NCBI GenBank assembly: GCA_958296135.2
Contig: CATQHZ020000001.1
Span: 1,152,001 to 1,216,000 of the forward strand
Origin: an uncultured Poribacteria bacterium
GTDB lineage: Bacteria > Poribacteria > WGA-4E > WGA-3G
Length of the DNA stretch: 64,000 bases
Direction of reading: 5' to 3'
Both the position numbers and the translations under genes were made by a program. The notes beneath the pieces were generated by a model. The model saw nothing but the letters and a program-made list of their open reading frames with translations, did not search any database and was not told where the DNA came from. How positions within the stretch are numbered: the first letter of the stretch is position 1; each line of letters starts with the position of its first letter. Below are positions 33,700 through 47,577 of the stretch, one piece after another.

Positions 33700-33930
33700 A
33701 TGTGGGCATCGAGACGCGGGCGGGTTTGTCCCGTTTCCGAATCGAGACGCGGGAGTGTTCATCGAGCCCGGGAGGTTTCTCCTACCGGGGGAATCGAGAC
33801 CAGGAGGTTTCTCCTACCGGGGGAATCGAGACCAGGAGGTCTCTCCTACCGGGCGGTTTGTCCCGTTTCCGAATCGAGACGCGGGCGGTCTCTCCTACCG
33901 GGGTGTTCTGCATGAAACCGCGCCTACCGG
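33700..33930. repeat. GTAGGAG-family REP cluster
   Basis: gaatcgagaccaggaggt[t/c]tctcctaccggg repeats and two copies of gtttgtcccgtttccgaatcgagacgcggg. Confidence 0.85.
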
Positions 33931-33936
33931 TTGCAA

Positions 33937-35367
33937 TTACGCCAGAACGCCGCGGATAGGTCTGCCGCCGCGCGAGAGCACAATGCGGACCCCGTCAGGC
34001 GATTCTAGGCTTTGGTTGTAATCGATGCCGAGGCTCTGATAGATAGTCGCCGAGAGATCTTCTGGGCGCACCGGTGTTTCGGCGGGTTCCATTCCGTTCG
34101 GATCGGATGCGCCGATGACTTGTCCGCCCTGGACACCGCCGCCTGCTAACATCATGGAGAAGACGCGCGAGTGATGGTCCCGGCCGCCATTCTGATTGAT
34201 AACCGGTGTTCTGCCGAATTCGCCCATTGCGATGACAAGCGTGCTGTCTAGTAACCCGCGGTTCTCCAAGTCATCGACAAGGGTGGCCACCGTCCGGTCG
34301 AACTGCGAGAGTTTGCCGGGGAGCGTGGAGAAGATGCTGTTGTGGTTGTCCCAGCCGCCGTTGCTCACGGTGACGAAGTTGACACCGGCTTCTACCAGTC
34401 GCCTTGCAAGCAGGCAGCTCTGTCCGAAAGCGTTGCGCTGATATGCGTTGCGCATACTCCCCGGTTCGTTGTTGAGCTCGAACGCGGCGCGCGCGTCGGC
34501 GGAGCTCATCAGGTTGTAAGCGGAGGTATAGAAACTATCCACTGCCTTTGCCGTGGGGTTTCCTGCCTCATACTTCTTGAAGGCGGCATCGACGGCTTGC
34601 CGCAAGGAGCGTCGGCGTTCAACGCGTTCAAAGGAGACCCCTTTCGGCGGCTGTAAATCGCGCACCTTGAAATTTTTGTTCGCTGGGTTTCCGCCGGGTG
34701 AGAAGGGGGCGAGGGATGCGCCTAGGAACCCGCCGCCGCCATACGCGATTGGCGCGGGGACAGCGATGTAGGGCGGCAAGGCACTCCGCTGTTCCTTGAG
34801 TTTAGAGACGACGGCCCCGTACCCTGGTACGGCGAAACCCGGTAGCGGTTGATAGCCTGTCATCATGTAGTGTGTGCCGCGTTCGTGGGCTGCCTCCGGC
34901 GATGTCATCGAACGGATGATGCAGAGTTTATCCATCTGTTGCGCGAGTTTCGGCATGTGTTCGCTAATCTGGATGCCGGTGACGTTCGTGGCAATCGGCT
35001 TGAAGAGTCCGCGGATTTCCTCGGGTGCGTCCGGCTTCAGATCCCACATATCAAGATGACTCGGTCCGCCGCCGAGCCATAGGAGGATAACCGATTTGGC
35101 GGTGCCTTCAGACACGAGCGATTGGGCAACTGCTTCTCCATGCGCTTCCGTGGTCGGGTTTGCAGCGGCTTTCAGGCGGAACAAGTCGGTGAGGCTGAGC
35201 CCGAACAAGCCGAGCACGCCTGCCTTGATAAAATCTCTGCGATGAAATCCTTCGCAATCGGTCTTTTGTATTGGCGCAAAGCGTTCGTGAGCGTTTGCTG
35301 GTGCAATGCCAGTTGTTTGCCGGCTCTGCTTGCGCCGTTGTTGCAAGCTGCGTTTCTTGGATGACAT
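33937..35367 (-). CDS. DUF1501 family protein (Tat-like signal)
   Basis: RRDFIKAG, WLGGGPSHLD.WD.KP, FGQSCLLARRLVEAGV, WDNH, GEFGRTP and GRDH motifs. Confidence 0.92.
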   Translation of the reverse strand: MSSKKRSLQQRRKQSRQTTGIAPANAHERFAPIQKTDCEGFHRRDFIKAGVLGLFGLSLTDLFRLKAAANPTTEAHGEAVAQSLVSEGTAKSVILLWLGGGPSHLDMWDLKPDAPEEIRGLFKPIATNVTGIQISEHMPKLAQQMDKLCIIRSMTSPEAAHERGTHYMMTGYQPLPGFAVPGYGAVVSKLKEQRSALPPYIAVPAPIAYGGGGFLGASLAPFSPGGNPANKNFKVRDLQPPKGVSFERVERRRSLRQAVDAAFKKYEAGNPTAKAVDSFYTSAYNLMSSADARAAFELNNEPGSMRNAYQRNAFGQSCLLARRLVEAGVNFVTVSNGGWDNHNSIFSTLPGKLSQFDRTVATLVDDLENRGLLDSTLVIAMGEFGRTPVINQNGGRDHHSRVFSMMLAGGGVQGGQVIGASDPNGMEPAETPVRPEDLSATIYQSLGIDYNQSLESPDGVRIVLSRGGRPIRGVLA

Positions 35368-35467
35368 GGTAAGGCCCCCTGTCTTAATTCGGGTTCCGGT
35401 AGCAATTCTACCGAAATATTTCGGCAGGTTGCGGAAGTCTTATGAGGATAAGGCGTTTCGGTTGCGC

Positions 35468-35707
35468 CTATTTGCTGAGGTTCTGCATGAACGCTTCGAG
35501 GCTCTCCGGGCGCGCCGCTGCGGCGAGGAGCAGCTGTTGGAGGCGTTGCACATCGTCAATTTTCTCCAGCGTTGGTTTCAGAGCCTGCACTGCGTCAGGG
35601 TGGAATTGCAAGCTGAGCAACGCCAAAATGTCGTCAATCCTCGCTTCAATTCTACCCTCGTCCCTTGCCTCTTCCATGTAAAGTTGGACAAAAGCAGATT
35701 CTAACAT
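35468..35707 (-). CDS. C-terminal cassette 3 (79 aa), putative RpnS-like antitoxin
   Basis: GGAGG-5nt-ATG; MLESAFVQLYMEEARDEGRIEARIDD... Confidence 0.6.
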   Translation of the reverse strand: MLESAFVQLYMEEARDEGRIEARIDDILALLSLQFHPDAVQALKPTLEKIDDVQRLQQLLLAAAARPESLEAFMQNLSK

Positions 35708-35870
35708 GATCCCCTCCGGTAAGAAATAGCGGATGAGGCGCGGATTATGAGCCAACCCGCCCAACACCCCTGCTGCTTCAAATAAGAGATGCCGCGTCGA
35801 CTCGTCTGTCCGAGAAGTCGCTATCGCATTTAGACATTGCTCCACCCAAGGATGGGTGTCTCGGTTTCGG

Positions 35871-36107
35871 CTATTTGCTGAGGTTCTGCATGAACGCTTC
35901 GAGGCTCTCCGGGCGCGCTGCGGCGAGATGCAACTGCTGGAGGCGTTGCACATCGTCAATTTTCTCCAGCGTTGGTTTCAGGGCTTGCACGGCATCCGGG
36001 TGGAATTGCAAGCTGAGCAACGCTAGGATAGAGTCAATAGTGGCATCTATCCTGCCCTTTTCTTTCGCCTCTTCCATGTAAAGTTGGACAAAAGCAGATT
36101 CTAACAT
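35871..36107 (-). CDS. C-terminal cassette 2 (78 aa), putative RpnS-like antitoxin
   Basis: GGAGG-5nt-ATG; MLESAFVQLYMEEAKEKGRIDATIDS... Confidence 0.6.
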   Translation of the reverse strand: MLESAFVQLYMEEAKEKGRIDATIDSILALLSLQFHPDAVQALKPTLEKIDDVQRLQQLHLAAARPESLEAFMQNLSK

Positions 36108-36276
36108 GATCCCCTCCGGTAAGAAATAGCGGATGAGGCGCGGATTATGAGCCAACCCGCCCAACACCCCTGCTGCTTCAAATAAGAGATGCCGCGTTGA
36201 CTCGTCTGTCCGAGAAGTCGCTATCGCATTTAGACATTGCTCCACCCAAGGATGGGTGTCTCGGTTTCGGTTGCGT

Positions 36277-37152
36277 CTAGTTGCTGAGGTTCTGCATGAA
36301 CGCTTCGAGGCTCTCCGGGCGCGCTGCGGCGAGATGCAACTGCTGGAGGCGTTGCACATCGTCAATTTTCTCCAGCGTTGGTTTCAGGGCTTGCACGGCA
36401 TCCGGGTGGAATTGCAAGCTGAGCAACGCCAAAATGTCGTCGATCCTCGCATTTATCTCGCCCTCTTTTCTCGCTTCTTCCATGTAAAGTTGGACAAAAG
36501 CAGATTCTAACATGATCCCCTCCGGTAAGAAATAGCGGATGAGGCGCGGATTATGAGCCAACCCGCCCAACACCCCTGCTGCTTCAAATAAGAGATGCCG
36601 CGTCGACTCGTCTGTCCGAGAAGTCGCTATCGCATCAAAACATTTCTCCAACCACCGGTCCGGTTGCATCCGCTCCGGCGGCTTCATCAACGGTGTAAAA
36701 GGCAACAGCCCCGGTGTCTGCATCTCCAAGATGGCTTCGCCTTCAAAATCGGCCAACCGAATCACCTTGTAGCGGAGTTGAAAGTGGTAGTCCGTGCCAC
36801 GCCCGTATTCGTGGATGCCCGTGTCGTTTCGTCCTGCCCTCGGGTGCAGGTAGAGGACGTTGCAGTAGACGTTCAGTTCGTGGGCGTGGTTGAGAAAGCC
36901 GTTGTATCCGGCGAGTCTCATTCCAATCGGTTTGCCACTGGTGTGGGTTTGCACCTCGGTGTGAAAGATGGCAATTTCATCGGGGAACTGCACGCGCATG
37001 GTGCAGTCTGTGCGATGCGCCTTGAGCGTTGCCTGTTCCGACTCAAGATTGGCCAGTACCTTGACGTTCGCGTCGCCGAGGACGAACTGTGCGAACGCGT
37101 CGGCGTGTTCAAGTATGATATATTTGACAGTGTTGTCGTATTGTTGAGCCAT
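36277..37152 (-). CDS. Rpn-family (recombination-promoting nuclease/putative transposase) PD-(D/E)xK protein, with an internal start at 36513
   Basis: YDN..K, RTD...FHTEVQT, M.L..Y, VLYL, YKVIRL and LLPFTPLM motifs typical of Rpn-like proteins. Confidence 0.75.
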   Translation of the reverse strand: MAQQYDNTVKYIILEHADAFAQFVLGDANVKVLANLESEQATLKAHRTDCTMRVQFPDEIAIFHTEVQTHTSGKPIGMRLAGYNGFLNHAHELNVYCNVLYLHPRAGRNDTGIHEYGRGTDYHFQLRYKVIRLADFEGEAILEMQTPGLLPFTPLMKPPERMQPDRWLEKCFDAIATSRTDESTRHLLFEAAGVLGGLAHNPRLIRYFLPEGIMLESAFVQLYMEEARKEGEINARIDDILALLSLQFHPDAVQALKPTLEKIDDVQRLQQLHLAAARPESLEAFMQNLSN

Positions 37153-37157
37153 CGAAA

Positions 37158-37187
37158 ATAATACCCTTTTTTGTAGGATGATGTCAA
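37158..37187 (-). promoter_or_regulatory. sigma70 promoter giving a leaderless Rpn-like mRNA
   Basis: TTGACA-18-TATTAT ending 5 nt before the ATG; no SD. Confidence 0.55.
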
Positions 37188-37279: not shown

Positions 37280-38719
37280 CTATTTGCGCGATTTCCGGAG
37301 TCTTTTAATCCATCGGCGCGCCGCTGCCAGCTCGGTGTCAAACGGCTCTTTTATTTCAAAACATTCGGTATGCCCTGCGTAGACGTGATGCCAATCGACA
37401 ATGCACGGCATCCGATTTTCATAGAGGTTGTGCATCAGAAACGAGCGGACCTTGGCGCGCGTATCCTGAGGTGCATTCTCAATTGCGTGCTCAATCTGCG
37501 TGTCCGTTACAACCCGTTGCATGAAGCCCTGTTCTTCCAAGGCGTAGTAAAGTCCGCTATCCGGATGGATGTTATGATACGCCAAGTCTTGGCTCTTAAT
37601 CCACGGGTCATCCCAGTCCAGCCCTTCTTCGGCAATGAACGTGTCGAGGAGCATTTTCTTTGCGGCCCAATCGACGCGGTCGGTGACGAGCTGCCAGTCT
37701 TTCTCCAGGTCATCGAGTATCCGTTCCCATTCAGTCAGCACCCACACGGTTTCCGCGTCCTGGTCTGCAGGGACATATTTCTGGACGAATTGGAGGTATT
37801 CCCTTTGCAGTTCTATGGCACGGGCGGTTTCTCCTGTCACCAATTCGAGGTTCCAGTCGAAGGTGCTGTCTCGCGAGACTTGCCGAATGGCATAAACCGG
37901 ATCGGCGAGGACGAGATTGGGTAGCGGCAGTTTCTCACCGTTTTCCCGATGGAATTCTTCGAGGGCGGCGAGGAGCAGGGCTGTGGTGCCTACCTTCAGC
38001 GCGGTTGCAAACTCCGACATATTGGAATCCCCGACGAGGAGGTGGAGTCTGCGGTATTTCGTGAAATCGCTGAGCGGTTCATCGCGTGTGTTGATGATGG
38101 CGCGGCTAAACTGGATCCACTCGTAAATTTCGGCGACGATGTGGTCTGCGCGTTGCGAGATCTGGTAGTCTGGAAAGTCCTCGAAATCGCCGTAAATTCC
38201 GGCGTATTCTCCCATTTCATCGTGTGCACCGACTCTGCCTGCGCCCGCGTAAATCTGCCGGGTGACGAAGAAGGCCATGAGCGTCGGAATGACGATTTTA
38301 TAGAAGGGTACTCTTCGGCTGACTTGGAAATTTTCGTGACAGCCAAACGTCGCCCCCGTGAAGTGGTCGATGTTGTTTTTGAAAAAGGCGGTACGTAACC
38401 CGGTGCCCTCTAGTATTCTGACGATGACGCGCTCAATTGCTTTATCGTAAGCGATGAGGTCGAACAGCGAGCCGCACTCGGGCGTGGCGTATTCAAGGTG
38501 CCCCATATCAATGTAGAGGCGGCCGCCGTTGAAGAGGAACCCGCCGTTGCCGGGCGGTTCTCCCCAGTCGCGGTAGTGGATATCGCGGATGCCGAGTTCG
38601 AGCGCGTTGAAGACGTAGTCGCGCACGCGCGCCGCAACGCCTTCCGAGGTGCCGCGTGTTCCTTCCTGCTGCATCATGCAGCCAAATTCTGTTTCAATGC
38701 CAAAAATTCGGTTTTTCAT
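37280..38719 (-). CDS. pafA: Pup/UBact-protein ligase
   Basis: RIFGIETEFG, NGGRLYID..H.EYATPEC, GCHENF, ISQRADH, INTRDEP and RRLHL.VGDSNMSE motifs; last gene of the operon. Confidence 0.9.
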   Translation of the reverse strand: MKNRIFGIETEFGCMMQQEGTRGTSEGVAARVRDYVFNALELGIRDIHYRDWGEPPGNGGFLFNGGRLYIDMGHLEYATPECGSLFDLIAYDKAIERVIVRILEGTGLRTAFFKNNIDHFTGATFGCHENFQVSRRVPFYKIVIPTLMAFFVTRQIYAGAGRVGAHDEMGEYAGIYGDFEDFPDYQISQRADHIVAEIYEWIQFSRAIINTRDEPLSDFTKYRRLHLLVGDSNMSEFATALKVGTTALLLAALEEFHRENGEKLPLPNLVLADPVYAIRQVSRDSTFDWNLELVTGETARAIELQREYLQFVQKYVPADQDAETVWVLTEWERILDDLEKDWQLVTDRVDWAAKKMLLDTFIAEEGLDWDDPWIKSQDLAYHNIHPDSGLYYALEEQGFMQRVVTDTQIEHAIENAPQDTRAKVRSFLMHNLYENRMPCIVDWHHVYAGHTECFEIKEPFDTELAAARRWIKRLRKSRK

Positions 38720-38833
38720 AGGAGGCCGGGGCAATCACGTTTCTTTACGTAATTTGTCATTGATGTTGTTGATGCCTACGTTTCGGTTTGAACGTTCGCG
38801 GGGGACGGCCCCCCGCGCTACGGGCTGTGTTTG

Positions 38834-39641: not shown

Positions 39642-42600
39642 TTAGGCGGCGGTTCGTGCTTTGCGTTCCGCCTTTGCCTTTTCAAGTTCTGCGGCTGCGT
39701 TGGGTAATTTGATGCCGCGCATTTGTAATGCTAGTTGCTGCGTTGCTAATGCTGCAGCGTCGTCGGCGTAGCCGTGCTTCTCGCCCTCTTCTGCCAAGTC
39801 CACCATGCTGTTTTTCGTTCCAGCGATGCTCGGTTCATCGGACAGCATTGTTCGCAGCGTTTGCATTGCATCGTGGACTGTGGTATCGGTAATCCCCAGC
39901 ACCTCTGTCAGCAGCCGTGCGTCTAGCACATGTCGCCACGCATCCCAACGGCATTCGCTGTATGGTAGCATCCGCGCGTTTTTCACATCGGCGAATACGC
40001 GTTCTGCTGCGTCAATCTGTTCGTCGGAGAGTTTCCGCACATCCAGTGTTGGTACGTTCAGCAACGGTGTCAGCGTTAACTTCCCACGTCCTGGTTGTTG
40101 CTTGCCCGCCATCGCCCAGTGAGACAGCAACCCGAGTGTGGAGTTTGTCCACAGCGTCCATACAGTATCGCCCCGTGTATCATGGAGTGCAATATTTGTG
40201 ATAGACGCAACACCGATGGATGGTTTGTCTGTCCATGGTGCCAATATAGAATTGGCTGGATAGCCCGGTAAAAGATGGTAATGCGTGCGTCTGCTCCTTT
40301 TCAAAATTCGCTGCGCCTTTTCTTCATTACCTGTCCGAATTTTGAATTTGGCATCAGGCTGCGTAACTATTGCTCGCTGAGTCTCGCACTGCACTTGCCA
40401 AAGGCCATCATATCCCTCAACGTCTATATTCTTGTAGGGATCGAATGCGCCGCGCATGCCATCCTTCTCCTTCTTGTCCTTGATATCTGCGGTGTGAAAA
40501 CCAGTTAGACCGATGTCGCCAATTTTGCAAATCGGGATTTCAACGTTTTCTTGCGTCATCGGCAAATGTAACTCGCCAGAAATCAGCCGATGTGTCGTTT
40601 GGAGTAACGACATCGATTGCAGACGTGTCGCGCTCCAAGCTTCATCGTTGATGGGACAATCCATGAATTGCCCGATGATTTCCTCGCCAACGTAAATCGG
40701 TTCCCCGCCAGTGGGGGTATCTTCCTGTTTCCGTACCGCTCTGCACCTCAGGATTCGGTTCGCGACCTCGCTAGCGTCCAACAGGCTCTGTGGCCGCTCC
40801 TTCAGGCAGACAAACGTTGCCCGTCCGGTGTTTTCTCCAACGCCTTTATCAGCGATTACCATGCATTCTGCCATGCTAGTGTCAGCCGAGAATGCGCTGT
40901 TGTAACCGCTATACTGCGCTATAGTTACCACTTTCACGTTGTGGTAAGCCTCCGCCCACATTTTACGAACCTTACGAAATGTTGCGCCTGTAAAAATTGT
41001 TGCAGGCAGAATCATTGCCATGCGCCCGCCATCCCTCAGTTTCCGATGCGCTAACTCCACAAAATAGGAAAATGCGGCTGTCCCATTAGAGACGGTAGTT
41101 TCCTTTTTCGCAAGTTCCTTAAGCATGGCCTTCCGGTCGGCAGCTTGGCGGAATGCGGATGCAAAAACCAGTTTCTGCTTCTTGGAATTATTGTCTGCGC
41201 CATTCGTTAGGTACGGAGGATTCATAATGACGATGTCCATCTCGCCGTGAGGGAACGCCCGTTTCAGTTCAGCCGTTGCGATTTCGTCACCGCCCGCTTG
41301 CTTGCCTTCCGCCTCCATTTCGTCAAACAGCAGTTGGTTGTCCAGCAGCTCCAGAGAACCCGTTTTGAAGCCCCCCGAGGTCTTGCCACAAGGTGCGGTG
41401 ATAACCCGCGTTGCGCCGAGTGTCACCGCGGGTTGCGCGCTCGCCATCGCCGAGAACGTCAGGTGTGTGCAGTGAGAGAAGATGTCGCAGCCCGCCAGAT
41501 TGTTCTCTAGCATGTAGCGGTGGATACCGATGCTGCTCTCGCCTTTCTGTTCTTCCCACAGTTGCTGGATGCGTTTGTAAACGCCGTTCAGCAAAGCCCC
41601 GGTTCCACAGGCGTAGTCGGCAACTTTCGGCAGTGTCTCAAGTGTTGCGTTTTCAGGTAGGCTTGGACATGCGAGTGCCGATATTAACGTTGCGCTTTCT
41701 GGCAAGGTGTAGTTCGCCTTCACCTCTTTCCTGTCGACGAGTAGCGTCTGAAATACCTCTCCCGCCAACTCGTGGATTTGTGGTAGATGGGACTTAATCA
41801 GTTCGCAGGCGGCATTGCACAGTTGCTGCAACACTGTCTCGGCTTTTTCTTCATCGTAGCAGAGTGCGGCATCCAGCATTCGGCGTGCATCGTTGAAGAT
41901 GGGATGGTAGTTCACTTTAAGGATGGCATTCCAGTCGCGCGCCACCTCCGCCAAATCGATGCCGTTCGTCTTGTAGTAGGCAGGCGGCCGCACCGTTTCC
42001 ATCTGCGGTTTTCCTGCGAGAGAATTTTGAAAGACGAATGCGTCCGTGATGATTAAGCATCCGACTCGTGCCATCTGCTCGCCATACTCGCCGCATTCCC
42101 CGCCCAAAATCTCATTCAATCCAGCGGCGACAGCCGGCCGCTCGGTAGCAACTTTGTGTAGTTCACTTGCTGCGTCCTTCACCGCGTTGCCCATCTGTCC
42201 AGCGGCGTTTTGGATGCGCGCGCTCGGCACTGCGCCGAACCGAATGGCGTTAGCGATGTCACTCAGCGTCCCACAAGCAAAGCCCTCTTGAGGAAATCGG
42301 TAATCCGCCCCTTTTGACAATCCGACGAGCACATACTCGATGTCATCAGCGGCCTTTACAGCTTCAAGGAGTTTCCAGCGTCTTAACGGTTTGAAGGTTT
42401 CGGGGTAGCGAACCATCATCACCGTTGTTAACGCCGCGCTCTTTCCGCGGAAATCGGTAGTCAGCGTTTGCCCCCTGTATTTGGCGCAGACCTCCTTGAG
42501 ATTTGCCTCACCCTGATTTGTGGCCCCTTGCCACTTGGCATCGATGGCCACGGTCTCGTGTCCTAAGCGTGTCACCACGATGTCGGGATGCTTCGCGCTT

Positions 42601-42710
42601 CCGTCCAGGACGTTTTCTTGTTCTTCGATTTCCCAGCCAGCGGTACGTGGTAAAACAGCACCTAGCACATCCACAGTCAGACTCGTGACCACGTTCTCTT
42701 TCTTTTTCAC
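39642..42710 (-). CDS. Type IIG-like fused restriction endonuclease / N6-adenine methyltransferase
   Basis: N-terminal HPDIVV...IDAK nuclease; VADYACGTG (motif I) precedes IMNPPY (motif IV), i.e. gamma class; C-terminal TRD-like region; GGAG SD before GTG. Confidence 0.8.
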   Translation of the reverse strand: MKKKENVVTSLTVDVLGAVLPRTAGWEIEEQENVLDGSAKHPDIVVTRLGHETVAIDAKWQGATNQGEANLKEVCAKYRGQTLTTDFRGKSAALTTVMMVRYPETFKPLRRWKLLEAVKAADDIEYVLVGLSKGADYRFPQEGFACGTLSDIANAIRFGAVPSARIQNAAGQMGNAVKDAASELHKVATERPAVAAGLNEILGGECGEYGEQMARVGCLIITDAFVFQNSLAGKPQMETVRPPAYYKTNGIDLAEVARDWNAILKVNYHPIFNDARRMLDAALCYDEEKAETVLQQLCNAACELIKSHLPQIHELAGEVFQTLLVDRKEVKANYTLPESATLISALACPSLPENATLETLPKVADYACGTGALLNGVYKRIQQLWEEQKGESSIGIHRYMLENNLAGCDIFSHCTHLTFSAMASAQPAVTLGATRVITAPCGKTSGGFKTGSLELLDNQLLFDEMEAEGKQAGGDEIATAELKRAFPHGEMDIVIMNPPYLTNGADNNSKKQKLVFASAFRQAADRKAMLKELAKKETTVSNGTAAFSYFVELAHRKLRDGGRMAMILPATIFTGATFRKVRKMWAEAYHNVKVVTIAQYSGYNSAFSADTSMAECMVIADKGVGENTGRATFVCLKERPQSLLDASEVANRILRCRAVRKQEDTPTGGEPIYVGEEIIGQFMDCPINDEAWSATRLQSMSLLQTTHRLISGELHLPMTQENVEIPICKIGDIGLTGFHTADIKDKKEKDGMRGAFDPYKNIDVEGYDGLWQVQCETQRAIVTQPDAKFKIRTGNEEKAQRILKRSRRTHYHLLPGYPANSILAPWTDKPSIGVASITNIALHDTRGDTVWTLWTNSTLGLLSHWAMAGKQQPGRGKLTLTPLLNVPTLDVRKLSDEQIDAAERVFADVKNARMLPYSECRWDAWRHVLDARLLTEVLGITDTTVHDAMQTLRTMLSDEPSIAGTKNSMVDLAEEGEKHGYADDAAALATQQLALQMRGIKLPNAAAELEKAKAERKARTAA

Positions 42711-42789: not shown

Positions 42790-43737
42790 TTATTGCGTGC
42801 TGTCTTCTGCGTAACATTCCTCAAGATATTCATCGGAAACGGTTCCGACGCCATCCTGTGTGACGGTTTTCACAGTTGGGAAGATCTGTGCTTTTGCGTT
42901 ATAGCCGCTCGTTGCTGCGTCGTATTCGCTTGCGGTATCGAGGAGCCGCAAAATGGTGATAGTTGCCTGCCGTTCGTCCATTGCTTCTAGGCGCGTTTCG
43001 CCCCATCGGTTGAGGTACCGTAACACGCCACGGATCCAGATGGAGCCGGAGCCAGTCGTGGCGAAATCGACGTTCTCAAAGTGTGCGCCGAGGGCATCGT
43101 AGAAGAAGATTTTTCCGCCGTTTTCTGTTGAACGTTCGTGAGTGACAGGCTCTGGTGCTGCGGCGGTTGTGGCGTTATTCTTCGTATCGTAAATGGCGAA
43201 GATTGGGATGACACCGCCGATGCCTTGGAGTGCCATCGCGAGGTTATCCCGGATGAGGCGCGAGAGCATCCGCAGTTTTCCCTCTAGGCTCAGCTCTTGT
43301 AGTTGGCTGCGGCGGAAGTATTGGAACGAATGCTCCAATATCCGCGCTATCTCGTACGCAATAGCGGGCGAACCCGAGATAGCGAGGACAGAGTGCCGGT
43401 CGATCTGGAGGACTTTCTCCGCCTTGTCATAGATGACAGAGGTGCCTGCGGTTGCGCGCCGGTCGCCTGCAATCATCACGCCGTTGCGGTAGCGCACGGC
43501 GATGACTGTGGTGCTGTGCGCTATCTCAATATCGTGAGGGACAGGTCCTCGTGCGCCGGTATCGCGCGGTGTAAGCGCGCTCCCGGTCTCGATGCCGGCG
43601 TGTTTCAAGAGGCTGAGAAAGTCGCCTTTGTGGTTAGTCTCCCCGGGTAGGAGCGCGCTTCGTGCACTTAGTGTTGAGGGTTCGCGGGGGACGGGCCCCC
43701 GCGCTACAGCAAGGTGCTCGAATTCCTCGTGGTTCAT
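42790..43737 (-). CDS. prcB: 20S proteasome subunit beta with a long propeptide
   Basis: AHS|TTVIAVRY..GV.IAGDRRAT, LSLEGK and TGSGS motifs. Confidence 0.92.
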   Translation of the reverse strand: MNHEEFEHLAVARGPVPREPSTLSARSALLPGETNHKGDFLSLLKHAGIETGSALTPRDTGARGPVPHDIEIAHSTTVIAVRYRNGVMIAGDRRATAGTSVIYDKAEKVLQIDRHSVLAISGSPAIAYEIARILEHSFQYFRRSQLQELSLEGKLRMLSRLIRDNLAMALQGIGGVIPIFAIYDTKNNATTAAAPEPVTHERSTENGGKIFFYDALGAHFENVDFATTGSGSIWIRGVLRYLNRWGETRLEAMDERQATITILRLLDTASEYDAATSGYNAKAQIFPTVKTVTQDGVGTVSDEYLEECYAEDSTQ

Positions 43738-43748
43738 GGGTTGCACCT

Positions 43749-44147: not shown

Positions 44148-45686
44148 TTACAGTTCCAATTTTTTAATCAACGTTTCCACGTTCGGCGATTCGTCAAGTG
44201 CCTTGTTATATTGCTTGGCGATTTCGGCATCAGCGAGTGCGTCCATGTCAACCGAGACGGGGCGGCCGTTCACCCGAAAGGTGATGCTGTCCCACTGGAT
44301 TGCTTTGATGTCTTGACTGAACCGATTGACAGCGTTGCCTCGGAAATAGGCCCGCGTTCCTGCTGGTGGTGCGTGGATGGCTGCGTCGATCTGTTCGTCA
44401 GTTACGACGCGCCGCATCGGGAGTCCATAGAAGAGTCCTTCGTCTTGATGGATGTTGTGGTATTCCAGATCGAGGCTCTGCAGCCACGGGTCATCCCATT
44501 CAAGTCGTTCTTCTTGGGCAAAGGTTTCAAGGAGCCATTTCTTTGCTACCCAATCGAGCCGGTCGGTGAGCGACATCGGGTCCTTCTCCAATGTGTTCAA
44601 CGTATCTTCCCATTCTGTCAGCACCCAGTCAATCTCGAAAGGGGTTGCTATTTTGCTATGGCCGGCCCCGCGCGTTGCGGTATCCTGTGCAAAATGTTTC
44701 TGCGCGAGGGCGAGATATTCACGCTGATGGTCTGGCGCGGACATCGTTTTTCCTTCCGCCGTTGTGACGAGCCACCGATATCCCTGGTCGTGCGAGATAG
44801 TTTTGATGGTGTCAATCGGGTTTGCGAGTGCCAATCTCCTTGGTATTTTGCGTGCTTCAATCAGCGCGATGACGAGTGCGGTTGTGCCGACCTTCAACGC
44901 GGTCGCGTATTCAGACATGTTTGCGTCGCCGACAATTCCGTGCAGTCTTCGATATTTCTTAGCATCGGCGTGCGGTTCATCTCGCGTATTGAAGATGGGG
45001 CGTTGATGCATCGTGTCGACACTTGCTTCGACGTGAAAGAAATCGGAACGCTGTGCGAGCTGAAAATGCCCGGGTGTTGCGAGTCCGGCTTCGGTTTCGA
45101 TGCCGAGTTTGCCTGCGCCGGCGAAAATCTGCCGTGTGACGAAGAAGGGCAGGATGCTCTCCTTGAGGTATTCAAACGGGACTTCCCGTGCCATGAGGTA
45201 GTTATCGTGGCATCCGTAGCTATGCCCTTGGAAATCGGTATTATTTTTAAATAGGAGCACGCGCTTGCCGAGGTGTTCGCTGCGTGTTTCGGCGCACCGC
45301 TGTACGATGCGTTCTCCCGCTTTATCGTGCGCGACCAGGTCGAACAGGCTGCAGCACTCCGGTGTGGCATACTCCGGGTGCGCGTGGTCATTGTAGAGTC
45401 GTGCGCCGTTGCCGAGTATCCGGTCGCTCTTGATTTCGGCGAAGGAGAAGTTGTGGCGCCGGTCGCGTTTCTCTTCTTCCTTTTCATCGGGATGATTGGA
45501 GAGGGTTTTCGCGCGGAAGCCGCGTTCATCACGAAAGGGGTCTTCGCCGCGGTAGTCCCACATCGGCTGAAAGTCCTCCTTGCGATAGCTCTTAATCAAC
45601 TCAATGGATTCCTTGACGGCATCGATGTGCGCTTCGTTTTCAAGGGTGATGCCGTATTCCGTTTCGATGCCAAAAAGTCTTTGCAT
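44148..45686 (-). CDS. dop: Depupylase/deamidase Dop (PafA2 family)
   Basis: LFGIETEYG, WDY.GEDP.RD.RGF, NGARLYNDHAHPEY, SYGCHDNYL and RRLH.IVGDANMSE motifs. Confidence 0.9.
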   Translation of the reverse strand: MQRLFGIETEYGITLENEAHIDAVKESIELIKSYRKEDFQPMWDYRGEDPFRDERGFRAKTLSNHPDEKEEEKRDRRHNFSFAEIKSDRILGNGARLYNDHAHPEYATPECCSLFDLVAHDKAGERIVQRCAETRSEHLGKRVLLFKNNTDFQGHSYGCHDNYLMAREVPFEYLKESILPFFVTRQIFAGAGKLGIETEAGLATPGHFQLAQRSDFFHVEASVDTMHQRPIFNTRDEPHADAKKYRRLHGIVGDANMSEYATALKVGTTALVIALIEARKIPRRLALANPIDTIKTISHDQGYRWLVTTAEGKTMSAPDHQREYLALAQKHFAQDTATRGAGHSKIATPFEIDWVLTEWEDTLNTLEKDPMSLTDRLDWVAKKWLLETFAQEERLEWDDPWLQSLDLEYHNIHQDEGLFYGLPMRRVVTDEQIDAAIHAPPAGTRAYFRGNAVNRFSQDIKAIQWDSITFRVNGRPVSVDMDALADAEIAKQYNKALDESPNVETLIKKLEL

Positions 45687-45783: not shown

Positions 45784-47577
45784 CTAAATGACGCGGTTTG
45801 ATACCTTCCGCCGTTCCCGTTTCTCGGTTTTGATAGGCGTAACCTTCACCACATTCGCCGGATCATAGTCAAGTAGTTTGAGCCAGTCTTCCGTTGCTTC
45901 TGTGGGCGGGAAGATTTCGCTTTCGCTGTATTCGGCGTTGAGTGCGTCGAGCAAGTCTGCGCGCGTGATGCCGGCTTCTCGCTCCGGTTCCCGAATTGCC
46001 CGCTTTAGCGCGTACTCTTTTGCGCGTTGCACAATGGACTCGATGATGGCCCCGCTGCAGAGGTGTCCGCGATAGAGAATATCGCGTCTCCCGCTGCGGA
46101 GCGAGACTTCTAGGAATCGGTTATCATCGTCCTCCCGGAACATTTCATCAACCACCTGTCCAATCAGGTCAGTGATGAGTTTCTCTGTGCCGTAGTCTTC
46201 TTCATTTTCTGCCAGTTCGCCTTTCGTCGCGGGTTCTGAGACGAGCGGCAGTTCTGGGGTGAGGTAGATACGGAAAATATCCTTCGCTGCTTCTGCGTTT
46301 GGGCGCGTCACCTTGATTTTTCTATCAATGCGGCCGGGACGCAGAATCGCGGGGTCGACCAGGTCTGGCCGGTTTGTTGCGAGGATAATAACGACATCGT
46401 GGAGCGATTCAATGCCGTCCATCTCTGCGCAGAACATCGGCACCAGCGTATTCGATATGCTGTGTGAGCGTAGGGCGCGGCGGGTGCCTAGAATCGATTC
46501 TGCCTCGTCAATGAAGACAAAGGCGAGTTTTCCTTCTTCGCGTTTCTCGCGGGCGATTTGGAAGATTTCCCTGACTTTCCGTTCGGATTCGCCGAGCCAC
46601 ATGTTGAGGATTTCCGGTCCCTTAATGTGTAGGAAACATCCCTCCACGTCCTCCCCGGTTTCGCTGCGAAGTTGTTCGGTGAGGTTATGCGCGGTTGCCT
46701 TTCCGATGAGCGTCTTCCCGCATCCTGGCGGTCCGTGTAGGAGGAATCCCTTCGGTGCGCTGTATTGGAATTGCTCGAAGAGTTTCGGGTGAAGGATTGG
46801 CAGTTCGATGGTATCCTTGATGAGTTGGATAGTCTGGTCTAGTCCCCCCACCTTCGACCAGGGGATGTCGGGCACCTTTTCAAGAGCGTAATGGTCTGCC
46901 TCTTTCGTGACTATCTGCTCAATTGCGATGCGAAAGTTAGAGTCAATGCGAATTTCGTCGCCCGGCTTCAAGTTGGCCTTGGCGAGTGTTGCGCTGCGTT
47001 CAAGGATGATGGATTGCGCGTTCGGTTCGCCGCCGACCCGGAGTCTGCTGTCGGGCAGTATGTCGGCGATTTTGACGATGGGTCCAGCGTCGCTATATCC
47101 GAGTTCTCCGACGACGACAAAAGCATCGTTCAGCAGCACGCTGTATCCCTTTTCGAGGGCTGCTGGGTTGAGTTCGGGTGCGAGGTTAGCGTAGTATTCG
47201 GATCCGCCGACGATGACGCGGGCGATGTCGTCCTTGTGCAGTCCGAGCAGTGTCCCGATTCGATTTGCTGGGGAAGTGAGTTGCTCGATCTGTTCTTCCA
47301 TCTCGGCATGGATGCGTAGTGCTTCGCGCTGGATGGCTTGCATCCGTTCTTGGAATTCACCCTCATCGCTGAGGATAGAGCGGCGGAGTTCTAGTAGCCA
47401 TCTTCGTCGCCGGTCTTCCACGGGTGTTTCGGAGATGATATGGTGAATGAGCTGCAAGGAATAGCCGGAGCTGCGTTCTTCGTCTTCGGCTTCAAATTCC
47501 TCATCCATCTCGTCTTCAATAAACAGGTCTGGCTCGTTTGTGCGTGCGCCAGGATGTCCACGTTTTTTATCGTACAT
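45784..47577 (-). CDS. arc: Proteasome-associated AAA+ ATPase ARC/Mpa
   Basis: Coiled coil plus OB region; GPPGCGKT, IKGPEILN, FIDEAES and ILRPGRID motifs. Confidence 0.92.
   Translation of the reverse strand: MYDKKRGHPGARTNEPDLFIEDEMDEEFEAEDEERSSGYSLQLIHHIISETPVEDRRRRWLLELRRSILSDEGEFQERMQAIQREALRIHAEMEEQIEQLTSPANRIGTLLGLHKDDIARVIVGGSEYYANLAPELNPAALEKGYSVLLNDAFVVVGELGYSDAGPIVKIADILPDSRLRVGGEPNAQSIILERSATLAKANLKPGDEIRIDSNFRIAIEQIVTKEADHYALEKVPDIPWSKVGGLDQTIQLIKDTIELPILHPKLFEQFQYSAPKGFLLHGPPGCGKTLIGKATAHNLTEQLRSETGEDVEGCFLHIKGPEILNMWLGESERKVREIFQIAREKREEGKLAFVFIDEAESILGTRRALRSHSISNTLVPMFCAEMDGIESLHDVVIILATNRPDLVDPAILRPGRIDRKIKVTRPNAEAAKDIFRIYLTPELPLVSEPATKGELAENEEDYGTEKLITDLIGQVVDEMFREDDDNRFLEVSLRSGRRDILYRGHLCSGAIIESIVQRAKEYALKRAIREPEREAGITRADLLDALNAEYSESEIFPPTEATEDWLKLLDYDPANVVKVTPIKTEKRERRKVSNRVI

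Follow-up and report, generated by a model that had tools for sequence, protein, structure and literature searches.

The window analyzed here, a stretch of 64,000 nucleotides from an uncultured Poribacteria bacterium (assembly GCA_958296135.2, contig CATQHZ020000001.1, positions 1,152,001 to 1,216,000), contains an rpn-like gene on the minus strand that is followed head-to-tail by two further copies of its 3′ part. The full-length gene is referred to as the resident and the two downstream copies as cassettes 2 and 3. The features of the locus, in window coordinates, are:

36277–37152, minus strand: rpnL-like resident gene (copy 1), an open reading frame (ORF) of 291 aa with the N-terminus MAQQYDN
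36673–37152 (about residues 1–160), minus strand: predicted N-terminal PD-(D/E)xK-type nuclease domain of the resident, followed by a helical linker and the C-terminal RpnS-like module
37158–37187, minus strand: sigma-70-like promoter TTGACA-18-TATTAT (11/12 matches in a consensus scan)
36519–36523, minus strand: internal Shine–Dalgarno sequence (SD) GGAGG of the resident, 5 nt before the internal ATG (36511–36513)
36277–36513, minus strand: internal RpnS-like frame of the resident, 78 aa (MLESAFVQ...), ending at the gene's own stop
36430–36477, minus strand: hypervariable helix segment of the resident, codons 226–241, the EGRx-repeat site of the orthologues, in the predicted interface
35858–36263, minus strand: repeat unit of cassette 2, with the SD at 36113–36117, a mini-ORF at 35871–36107 (78 aa) and the variable segment at 36024–36071
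35455–35857, minus strand: repeat unit of cassette 3, with the SD at 35713–35717, a mini-ORF at 35468–35707 (79 aa) and the variable segment at 35624–35671

Tandem Repeats Finder resolved the array as 3.0 copies with a period of 406 nt (35455–36654, 91% matches, score 2024). A repeat search placed the three copies head-to-tail at spacings of 400 and 406 nt, all from the last ~400 nt of the resident. GGAGG-N5-ATG is present in all three copies, and each frame of 78 or 79 codons closes with TAG. An initial annotation of this DNA had reported the internal GGAGG-N5-ATG at 36513 and two further copies of ~400 bp that keep SD, ATG, and stop, and both reports are correct. Resident and cassette 2 differ at 19 positions over 359 nt (36277–36635), 17 of which fall inside 36430–36475; the binomial P for this clustering is 9e-14 for one given interval and about 3e-11 over all positions of such an interval. 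The helix sequences of the three copies are ARKEGEINARIDD / AKEKGRIDATIDS / ARDEGRIEARIDD. The initial statement that the copies are nearly identical outside this ~45-nt segment holds for cassette 2, but not for cassette 3, whose 3′ flank deviates from the other two copies by 10 synonymous and 1–2 non-synonymous changes and by one 3-nt insertion, which adds a codon. Both cassettes have the same 5′ end (HPWVEQCLNA), which is unlike that of the resident (DRWLEKCFDA), as had been described (WVEQCLNA and WLEKCFDA); the 5′ remnant of cassette 2 (HPWVEQCLNA...) has no start of its own. Cassette 2 is a mosaic, whose 5′ end is that of cassette 3 and most of whose 3′ flank is that of the resident, with the HL residues in common and the 3-nt insertion absent; the final codon encodes K, as it does in cassette 3.

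The sequence (GCAA)CCGAAAC, likewise noticed before, directly follows all three stops. It was considered as a recombination signal and rejected, because it corresponds to the first 13–20 nt past the stop and is part of the duplicated unit; the genome contains 12 copies of the 11-mer compared with ~2.5 expected, none of them at the other rpn-like loci. A "GCAACCG" microhomology at codons 161–163 of the resident may have seeded the first duplication. Upstream of its ATG, each cassette frame continues without a stop for ~45 codons, running into the preceding copy in its +1 frame (35468–35959 and 35871–36365, minus strand), where ORFs of 163/164 aa are listed. These ORFs, like a database cluster of 124 aa (P0122), are probably 78-aa genes whose start was called too far upstream. 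A read-through or frameshift fusion of the resident with the cassettes was rejected: the open +1 upstream part has no similarity, and each cassette carries its own SD and ATG.

A six-frame search of the genome with hidden Markov models (HMMs) of the family yielded 12 full-length paralogues and 9 tail-only ORFs. In all 12 full-length paralogues, GGAGG is located 5–7 nt before a conserved internal ATG or GTG, and the residues encoded at this SD vary from paralogue to paralogue (SEE, PEG, KEV, TEE, RRI, RRD). The tail-only ORFs carry GGAG(G) at the same position in 8 of 9 cases. As a background, the GGAGG spacing was found at 109 of 18,895 internal in-frame ATGs of long ORFs (0.58%). The conserved internal SD and start codon thus appear to be a feature of the whole family and can yield a tail-only protein of 78 aa. 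In E. coli, rpn genes make a small RpnS protein from an internal start, by which the full-length nuclease, a toxin, is blocked (Zhong et al., 2023, PNAS, PMC10400941).

The start of the full-length gene is of a different kind. As stated initially, the −10 box ends 5 nt from the ATG of the resident and the intervening stretch has no SD; a complete promoter, TTGACA-18-TATTAT, was found. Because of this short distance, the full-length mRNA is probably leaderless, and the full-length protein would be made from it. The arrangement is kept in two other assemblies of the same genus, G080 (TTGACA-17-TATCAT-4 nt-ATG) and G152, and a −10 box lies 3–9 nt from the ATG in 4 of the 12 full-length paralogues.

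Hypervariable repeats of four residues begin 8–20 residues past the methionine of E. coli RpnS, in a long first helix that constitutes the dimer interface, and a mismatch of the RpnS repeats abolishes inhibition (PMC10400941). The initial annotation had likened the variable segment of the present copies to such a helix, which is borne out by the relatives of the gene. At the variable segment, EGRx units distinguish the resident from the orthologues P0003–P0005 and from its counterparts in G080 and G152, with 0–4 extra units inserted after residues 14–16 of the small protein. In other assemblies, 33 clusters of stand-alone small proteins were found, all of which begin with MLESAFVQL and have lengths of 78 (18 clusters), 82 (9), 86 (2), 90 (3), or 94 aa (1), that is, 78+4n. 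The AlphaFold2 (AF2) model of the small protein (predicted local distance difference test, pLDDT, 90.5) consists of a first helix of 31 residues and short helices. A predicted complex of resident residues 165–291 with cassette 2 scored 0.71 compared with 0.22 for the best control, a value that may reflect likeness only, since the structure of the RpnA-S dimer has already been solved (PDB 7th0). The mark used for such models was reached by 58 of 80 solved complexes and by 2 of 110 mismatched pairs. The runs agreed in at least 82% of the contacts with a partner pLDDT of at least 82, and the predicted interface, residues 220–246 against 7–33, covers every variable position. The model lends support to a putative binding of the cassette by the tail. 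7th0 was not among the Foldseek matches listed for the 78-aa model, and no sequence match to it was detected.

To place the resident protein, its relatives were collected. The database contains 468 homologues; among the 120 matches listed, none has a Pfam domain. Their source names point to Candidatus Poribacteria, and one homologue with 53% identity is named "predicted transposase YdaD" (JGI). In an alignment of 60 sequences, D49, E66, and Q68 are invariant and P210, E211, and M214 nearly so (M214 in at least 90%). Rpn nucleases (COG5464) use an E-x-Q motif. At E ≤ 1e-5, 114 of 151 genomes from the phylum have a match to the Rpn model TIGR01784 (62 above the cut-off), and the 60-sequence alignment was compared using hhalign with 28 TIGR01784-positive proteins of sister genomes (28 of 30 loci fetched). 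The whole protein matched with a probability of 96.5 (E 1e-9, 265 columns), D49, E66, and Q68 being aligned in register with the D and E-x-Q of the TIGR01784 set; the C-terminal region alone gave a probability of 97.4 (E 9e-12). The C-terminal HMM of the family matches the tails of 10 TIGR01784-positive sister-genome proteins (best E 1e-24, others 5e-7 to 6e-4, genome-scale Z), while the N-terminal HMM matches none of them. A PDB profile search gave no Rpn-family match for this family, and the hhalign comparison with the single E. coli RpnA sequence was not significant (E 0.57). The nearest named clusters in the ESM Atlas (0.97) are "Rpn family recombination-promoting nuclease", DUF4351, and DUF2887. 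The AF2 model of the resident (pLDDT 88) has an alpha/beta N-terminal domain, and the VIA-align matches for residues 229–291 are generic helical bundles. The Rpn-like identity given in the initial annotation is therefore upheld by remote homology, mainly of the tail, but no family HMM recognizes the protein. Judged from these alignments, the tail of the resident is clearly an Rpn tail, whereas its nuclease domain, which has the motifs in the same order, would be a PD-(D/E)xK branch that has diverged far or stands apart. In a sister genome (G133:C1:2616191–2617096, locus L049), a TIGR01784-type protein with a canonical nuclease domain carries a C-terminal module that shares 59% identity over 83 aa with the Pfam-invisible family (P0077), from which it follows that tails have moved between the two nuclease-domain families.

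The only matches at E < 1e-3 obtained for the family were to FliH and, in 1 of 60 members, to Yae1_N. They are located on the glycine-repeat helix of other members and were read as repeat-helix likeness. The repeat helices of two paralogues (C1:42246–43337 and C1:1040606–1041643) match FliH models (E down to 2e-8) and Yae1_N. These matches probably go back to a pairing helix of the same glycine-repeat type (GxxxG-like) and may hint at the packing of the Rpn repeat helix.

Seven of the nine tail-only ORFs are located directly downstream of 5 of the 12 paralogues, with two cassettes at two loci; the other two are orphans. The nuclease-domain HMM matches no cassette, all of which consist of the tail only. 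Over residues 165–290, the cassettes of the present locus share 90% and 92% identity with the resident, and the tail-only gene is most like its own resident at four other loci of the genome, too. The initial annotation had proposed to look for full-length paralogues carrying the helix of cassette 2 or 3; none is present in this genome, and identity drops to 44% for the paralogue next in rank. A cassette usually has another repeat helix than its resident (the one at C1:42 kb, for instance, is two EGRE units shorter), an exception being C1:3307396, where the two helices are the same. The orthologous group occupies three further loci in the two other assemblies, each with one cassette. In all four orthologous loci (3 genomes, 5 cassettes) the cassette helix differs from that of the resident, and SD, ATG, and an intact frame are kept in 5/5 cassettes. 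The proposed comparison across assemblies thus gave a resident plus one cassette with differing helices at the same locus in G080 and G152. Downstream tail-only ORFs were also found at four TIGR01784 loci among those whose own tail matches the C-terminal HMM of the family.

In G152 and G080, deletions have left ~30 nt and ~25 nt, respectively, of the cassette's untranslated 5′ remnant before the ATG, with SD, ATG, and frame intact. In the 3′ flank, synonymous divergence (dS) between cassette 3 and the resident is 0.378 and non-synonymous divergence (dN) 0.009–0.017 (dN/dS ~0.02–0.05), which indicates purifying selection on the cassette frame. Deletions confined to the 5′ remnant and the low dN relative to dS argue for expressed small genes rather than scars. 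The downstream copies therefore behave as selected small genes, as initially proposed. No terminator-like site was found on the minus strand of the array, so that co-transcription of the cassettes with the resident is likely. One of the orphan tail-only ORFs, outside the window (C1:1054272–1054634, plus strand, MSMEARN...), has no SD, and TTGACA-18-TATAAT abuts its ATG; it may be a stand-alone RpnS-like gene of the leaderless type that carries (GFQL)n repeats.

The 5′ start of the cassettes is common to the present genome (G000) and G152, and the first duplication therefore predates them; the first cassette appears to be older than the genus. At this locus, the DNA of G000, G080, and G152 has diverged by ~12–16%. 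The composition of cassette 2, with the 5′ end of cassette 3 and mostly the 3′ flank of the resident, fits unequal exchange. The second cassette would have arisen by such an exchange between a cassette and the resident, and the middle parts would later have been homogenized by gene conversion. The initial annotation had considered the copies not to be simple duplications of the resident. The 5′ ends do differ, which is explained by an old first cassette, unequal exchange, and gene conversion. The 3′ flanks are of the type EKIDDVQ in all copies of G000 and of the type AEIKDLQ (resident type) in both copies of G152, whereas the two types remain apart in G080, where EKIDDVQ is found only in cassettes. 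The flanks have been homogenized within the locus in a direction that differs between the genomes. Despite its mosaic flanks, cassette 2 has a helix of a third type. Compared with the resident, its flank has a dS of 0–0.03, while the helix segment is saturated at synonymous sites, which points to old or shuffled sequence in young flanks and not to a burst of point mutations. Different repeat units that survived expansion and contraction would explain the saturated helix. A diversity-generating retroelement was also considered and rejected: the substitutions in the segment are of all kinds and not adenine-specific, and no reverse transcriptase was found among the 10 neighboring ORFs scanned (26158–47577).

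Taken together, these observations are best read as a divergent Rpn-type toxin that contains its antitoxin and is accompanied by two spare antitoxin-type genes, which add subunits of altered specificity. We estimate the probability of this reading at roughly three in four. By analogy with E. coli RpnL and RpnS, the full-length protein, made sparingly from the leaderless mRNA, would be a toxic DNA endonuclease; the small proteins, translated from their SDs, would bind its C-terminal module helix to helix and keep the nuclease inactive; and some signal, possibly phage infection, would release it. The cassettes would have originated by tandem duplication and unequal exchange and would have been kept as working small genes. 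Through gene conversion, their flanks are kept like those of the resident, and the contact helix remains distinct. The cassettes could buffer or tune the nuclease as extra subunits of antitoxin type with altered specificity and, as a by-product, provide other helices for transfer into the resident by recombination.

Several results weigh against this reading. No Rpn-family match to the resident was found in Pfam, NCBIfam, or PADLOC, nor with Pfam for 60 family members or with Pfam and NCBIfam for 10 further paralogues. Scans of the whole genome gave no match to PF04754 (0), PF14261 (the DUF4351 tail, 0), or PF11103 (0), and the best TIGR01784 match had an E of 0.0755. Taken by itself, the nuclease domain has only a weak link to Rpn in hhalign (P 0.0077, probability 5%, compared with P 0.54 for the reversed control), so that the homology signal rests mainly on the tail. 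In VIA-align, residues 5–132 show a modest yet consistent resemblance to the PD-(D/E)xK nucleases NucS, VC1899, Can2, SdaI, AF1548, and BspD6I (2vld_B Z 7.2, rmsd 2.9, 101 aligned; 1xmx 6.1; 8bao 6.0; 2ixs 5.5; 1y88 5.2; 2p14 5.0), and such Z values of 5–7.2 over ~100 residues, being below 8, can reflect a common arrangement only. Neither the whole model nor the 78-aa model had a Foldseek match at E ≤ 0.001. The dN of the helix segment (0.18–0.31) is below its saturated dS and gives no formal sign of positive selection. The loss of neutralization upon helix mismatch in E. coli (PMC10400941) implies that the differing cassettes may not inhibit the resident. Finally, the locus sits inside a Pup-proteasome gene cluster and outside any defense island; the sole defense-type gene in the 10 ORFs scanned is type IIG restriction-modification (R-M)-like and lies ~2.5 kb off.

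The cassettes could also be mainly silent donors, recombined into the resident to switch its contact helix in the manner of silent pilin or vls sequences, in which case their translation would be irrelevant. The mosaic copies with homogenized flanks and an unconverted helix are in line with this, as are the EKIDDVQ flanks of all three G000 copies, a type confined to cassettes in G080, and the resident-type flanks of both G152 copies. The G133 tail demonstrates that tails move between nuclease domains, and fusions of the N-domain with the rpnSs region are mentioned by Zhong et al. (PMC10400941). On the other hand, SD, ATG, and an intact frame are kept in all five orthologous cassettes and in 8 of the 9 tail-only ORFs in this genome. 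A swap in G080 would have only ~25 nt of 5′ homology to rely on, while the translation signals remain; the coding sequence is under apparent purifying selection, and E. coli RpnESs is made as a protein (PMC10400941). We regard silent storage as the main role as unlikely. It is not exclusive of the reading as additional antitoxin-type subunits.

Still less probable is a view of the cassettes as scars without function, left by unequal crossing-over that the recombination-promoting nuclease itself may have provoked, and too young to have decayed. Cassette 2 is indeed young, being almost identical to the resident outside the variable segment, and tandem duplications are common around rpn genes (PMC10400941). 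The first cassette, in turn, predates the split of the three genomes and is intact in all of them; the flank of cassette 3 has the low dN/dS given above, deletions affect only the untranslated remnant, and whole frames are present in the 33 stand-alone clusters of other assemblies.

The array was also compared with Logan contigs from four runs of one sample in one study, possibly the source sample of the assembly. These contigs break at the repeat, and 35501–35768 and 35903–36237 are uncovered. One contig of 359 nt combines a cassette-3-like segment with resident-like flanks; we take it to be a collapsed path through the repeat and not a fourth variant. An assembly artefact with only one tail at the true locus, a possibility raised in the initial annotation, is unlikely and the least credible of the alternatives: short-read contigs do collapse the repeat and none spans the whole array, but the collapsed repeat contig has 2.1–2.4x the depth of the unique flanks in all four runs, a 101-nt contig is an exact copy of the junction between copies 2 and 3 (35800–35900), the three copies carry distinct helices, and two other assemblies of the same genus have a resident and one cassette in the same place.

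A further-reaching proposal, which we put forward tentatively and consider rather doubtful, is that resident and array form a built-in diversification system for toxin–antitoxin recognition. Stored helices would be swapped by gene conversion, perhaps started by the nuclease, and whole tails would be mobile between nuclease domains. If so, the pairing of small proteins with the nucleases they silence would be in constant flux within a population, for instance as an escape from phage-encoded mimics of the small protein, and cells would be protected by expressed non-matching cassettes while a switch takes place and afterwards.

Downstream RpnS copies are known from E. coli, where rpnE-ypaA (rpnESs) and rpnCSs are separately encoded and originate from duplication of the resident's tail (PMC10400941). 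As in these cases, the 3′ part of a nuclease gene is duplicated directly downstream with its own start, the copy is closest to its own resident (here 90–92% compared with at most 44% to other paralogues), the variation is found in the first helix, and recombination between resident and copy has been noted. In contrast to rpnESs and rpnCSs, there are two cassettes instead of one, although the supplements of PMC10400941 may hold multi-copy cases; the three tails are of equal length and differ by substitutions, whereas relatives do differ in repeat number; the nuclease domain is not recognized by Rpn models, the full-length gene looks leaderless, and the host is an uncultured Poribacteria symbiont of sponges. 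The initial annotation had treated the array as new. Since downstream copies, their origin from tail duplication, and fusions of the N-domain with rpnSs are already described in the E. coli study (PMC10400941), the array is a new example of a known design. New are the HMM-invisible Poribacteria family, the two-cassette array, the consistent helix mismatch between resident and cassette at orthologous loci, the leaderless-type promoters, and the tail exchange. In literature from 2023 on, only Zhong et al. and its commentary were found on this system, and nothing on Rpn-like genes in Poribacteria.

With RpnA-L and RpnA-S, the family shares, as predicted from sequence and models, a PD-(D/E)xK-type nuclease, a small helical tail, and an internal ribosome-binding site and start. 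The four-residue repeat, inserted here after residues 14–16, falls within the 8–20 residues past the internal methionine given for E. coli (PMC10400941), and the long first helix is predicted as the dimer interface. Unlike RpnA, the small protein has 78 aa instead of 49, and there is no detectable sequence match to RpnA or 7th0. The TIGR01784 proteins of other Poribacteria have a homologous C-terminal module and, at four loci, a downstream tail-only ORF as well; together with cyanobacterial DUF2887/DUF4351 proteins, they are the nearest ESM Atlas clusters. They differ from the present family in that its N-terminal HMM finds none of them.

The initial annotation had also drawn an analogy with orphan immunity arrays. 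Such arrays of orphan toxin tips and immunity genes sit downstream of rhs and cdiA genes, and their cassettes consist of the toxic tip and the immunity gene of a delivered toxin. The present array resembles them in its head-to-tail stack of displaced, variable 3′ fragments that follow a full-length gene, with a shared stretch of homology that allows recombination. Its cassettes, however, correspond to the antitoxin-like tail of a presumed cytoplasmic nuclease and contain neither a nuclease domain nor a Pfam delivery domain. With no delivered toxin and no toxin part in the cassettes, the analogy does not fit.

The purpose of the extra copies and the driver of helix variation were left open by the E. 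coli work (PMC10400941). The present genome offers a natural data set in this respect: 12 paralogues, 5 of them with tail-only genes, gene conversion around an unconverted helix, and one case of tail exchange. The whole family with its 468 database matches is invisible to Pfam, NCBIfam, and PADLOC, and Rpn-like systems are therefore under-counted.

The rpn-like genes are inserted between two genes that form the edges of the insertion:

33937–35367, minus strand: DUF1501 gene, downstream neighbor at one edge (Pfam PF07394, E 4.5e-113)
37280–38734, minus strand: Pup-ligase (PafA/Dop-type) gene at the other edge (Pfam PF03136, E 5.8e-134), supported by synteny

A distance of ~50–250 nt separates the DUF1501 gene from the Pup-ligase gene in other genera of the family, and an rpn-like insert between them was found only in G000, G080, and G152 (both among the matches listed). 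A tandem repeat with a 32-nt unit (33761–33853, 2.9 copies, 95% matches) occupies the spacer between the WD40 and DUF1501 genes. The Pup-proteasome cluster comprises an AAA ATPase (45784–47577), two Pup ligases (44148–45686 and 37280–38734), and a proteasome subunit (42790–43746). The type IIG R-M-like gene (39642–42710, minus strand) encodes an Eco57I/type IIG restriction-modification-like protein of 1022 aa with an NPPY methylase motif and is located between proteasome-subunit genes. Like the rpn-like locus, it resembles an insertion into a housekeeping operon.

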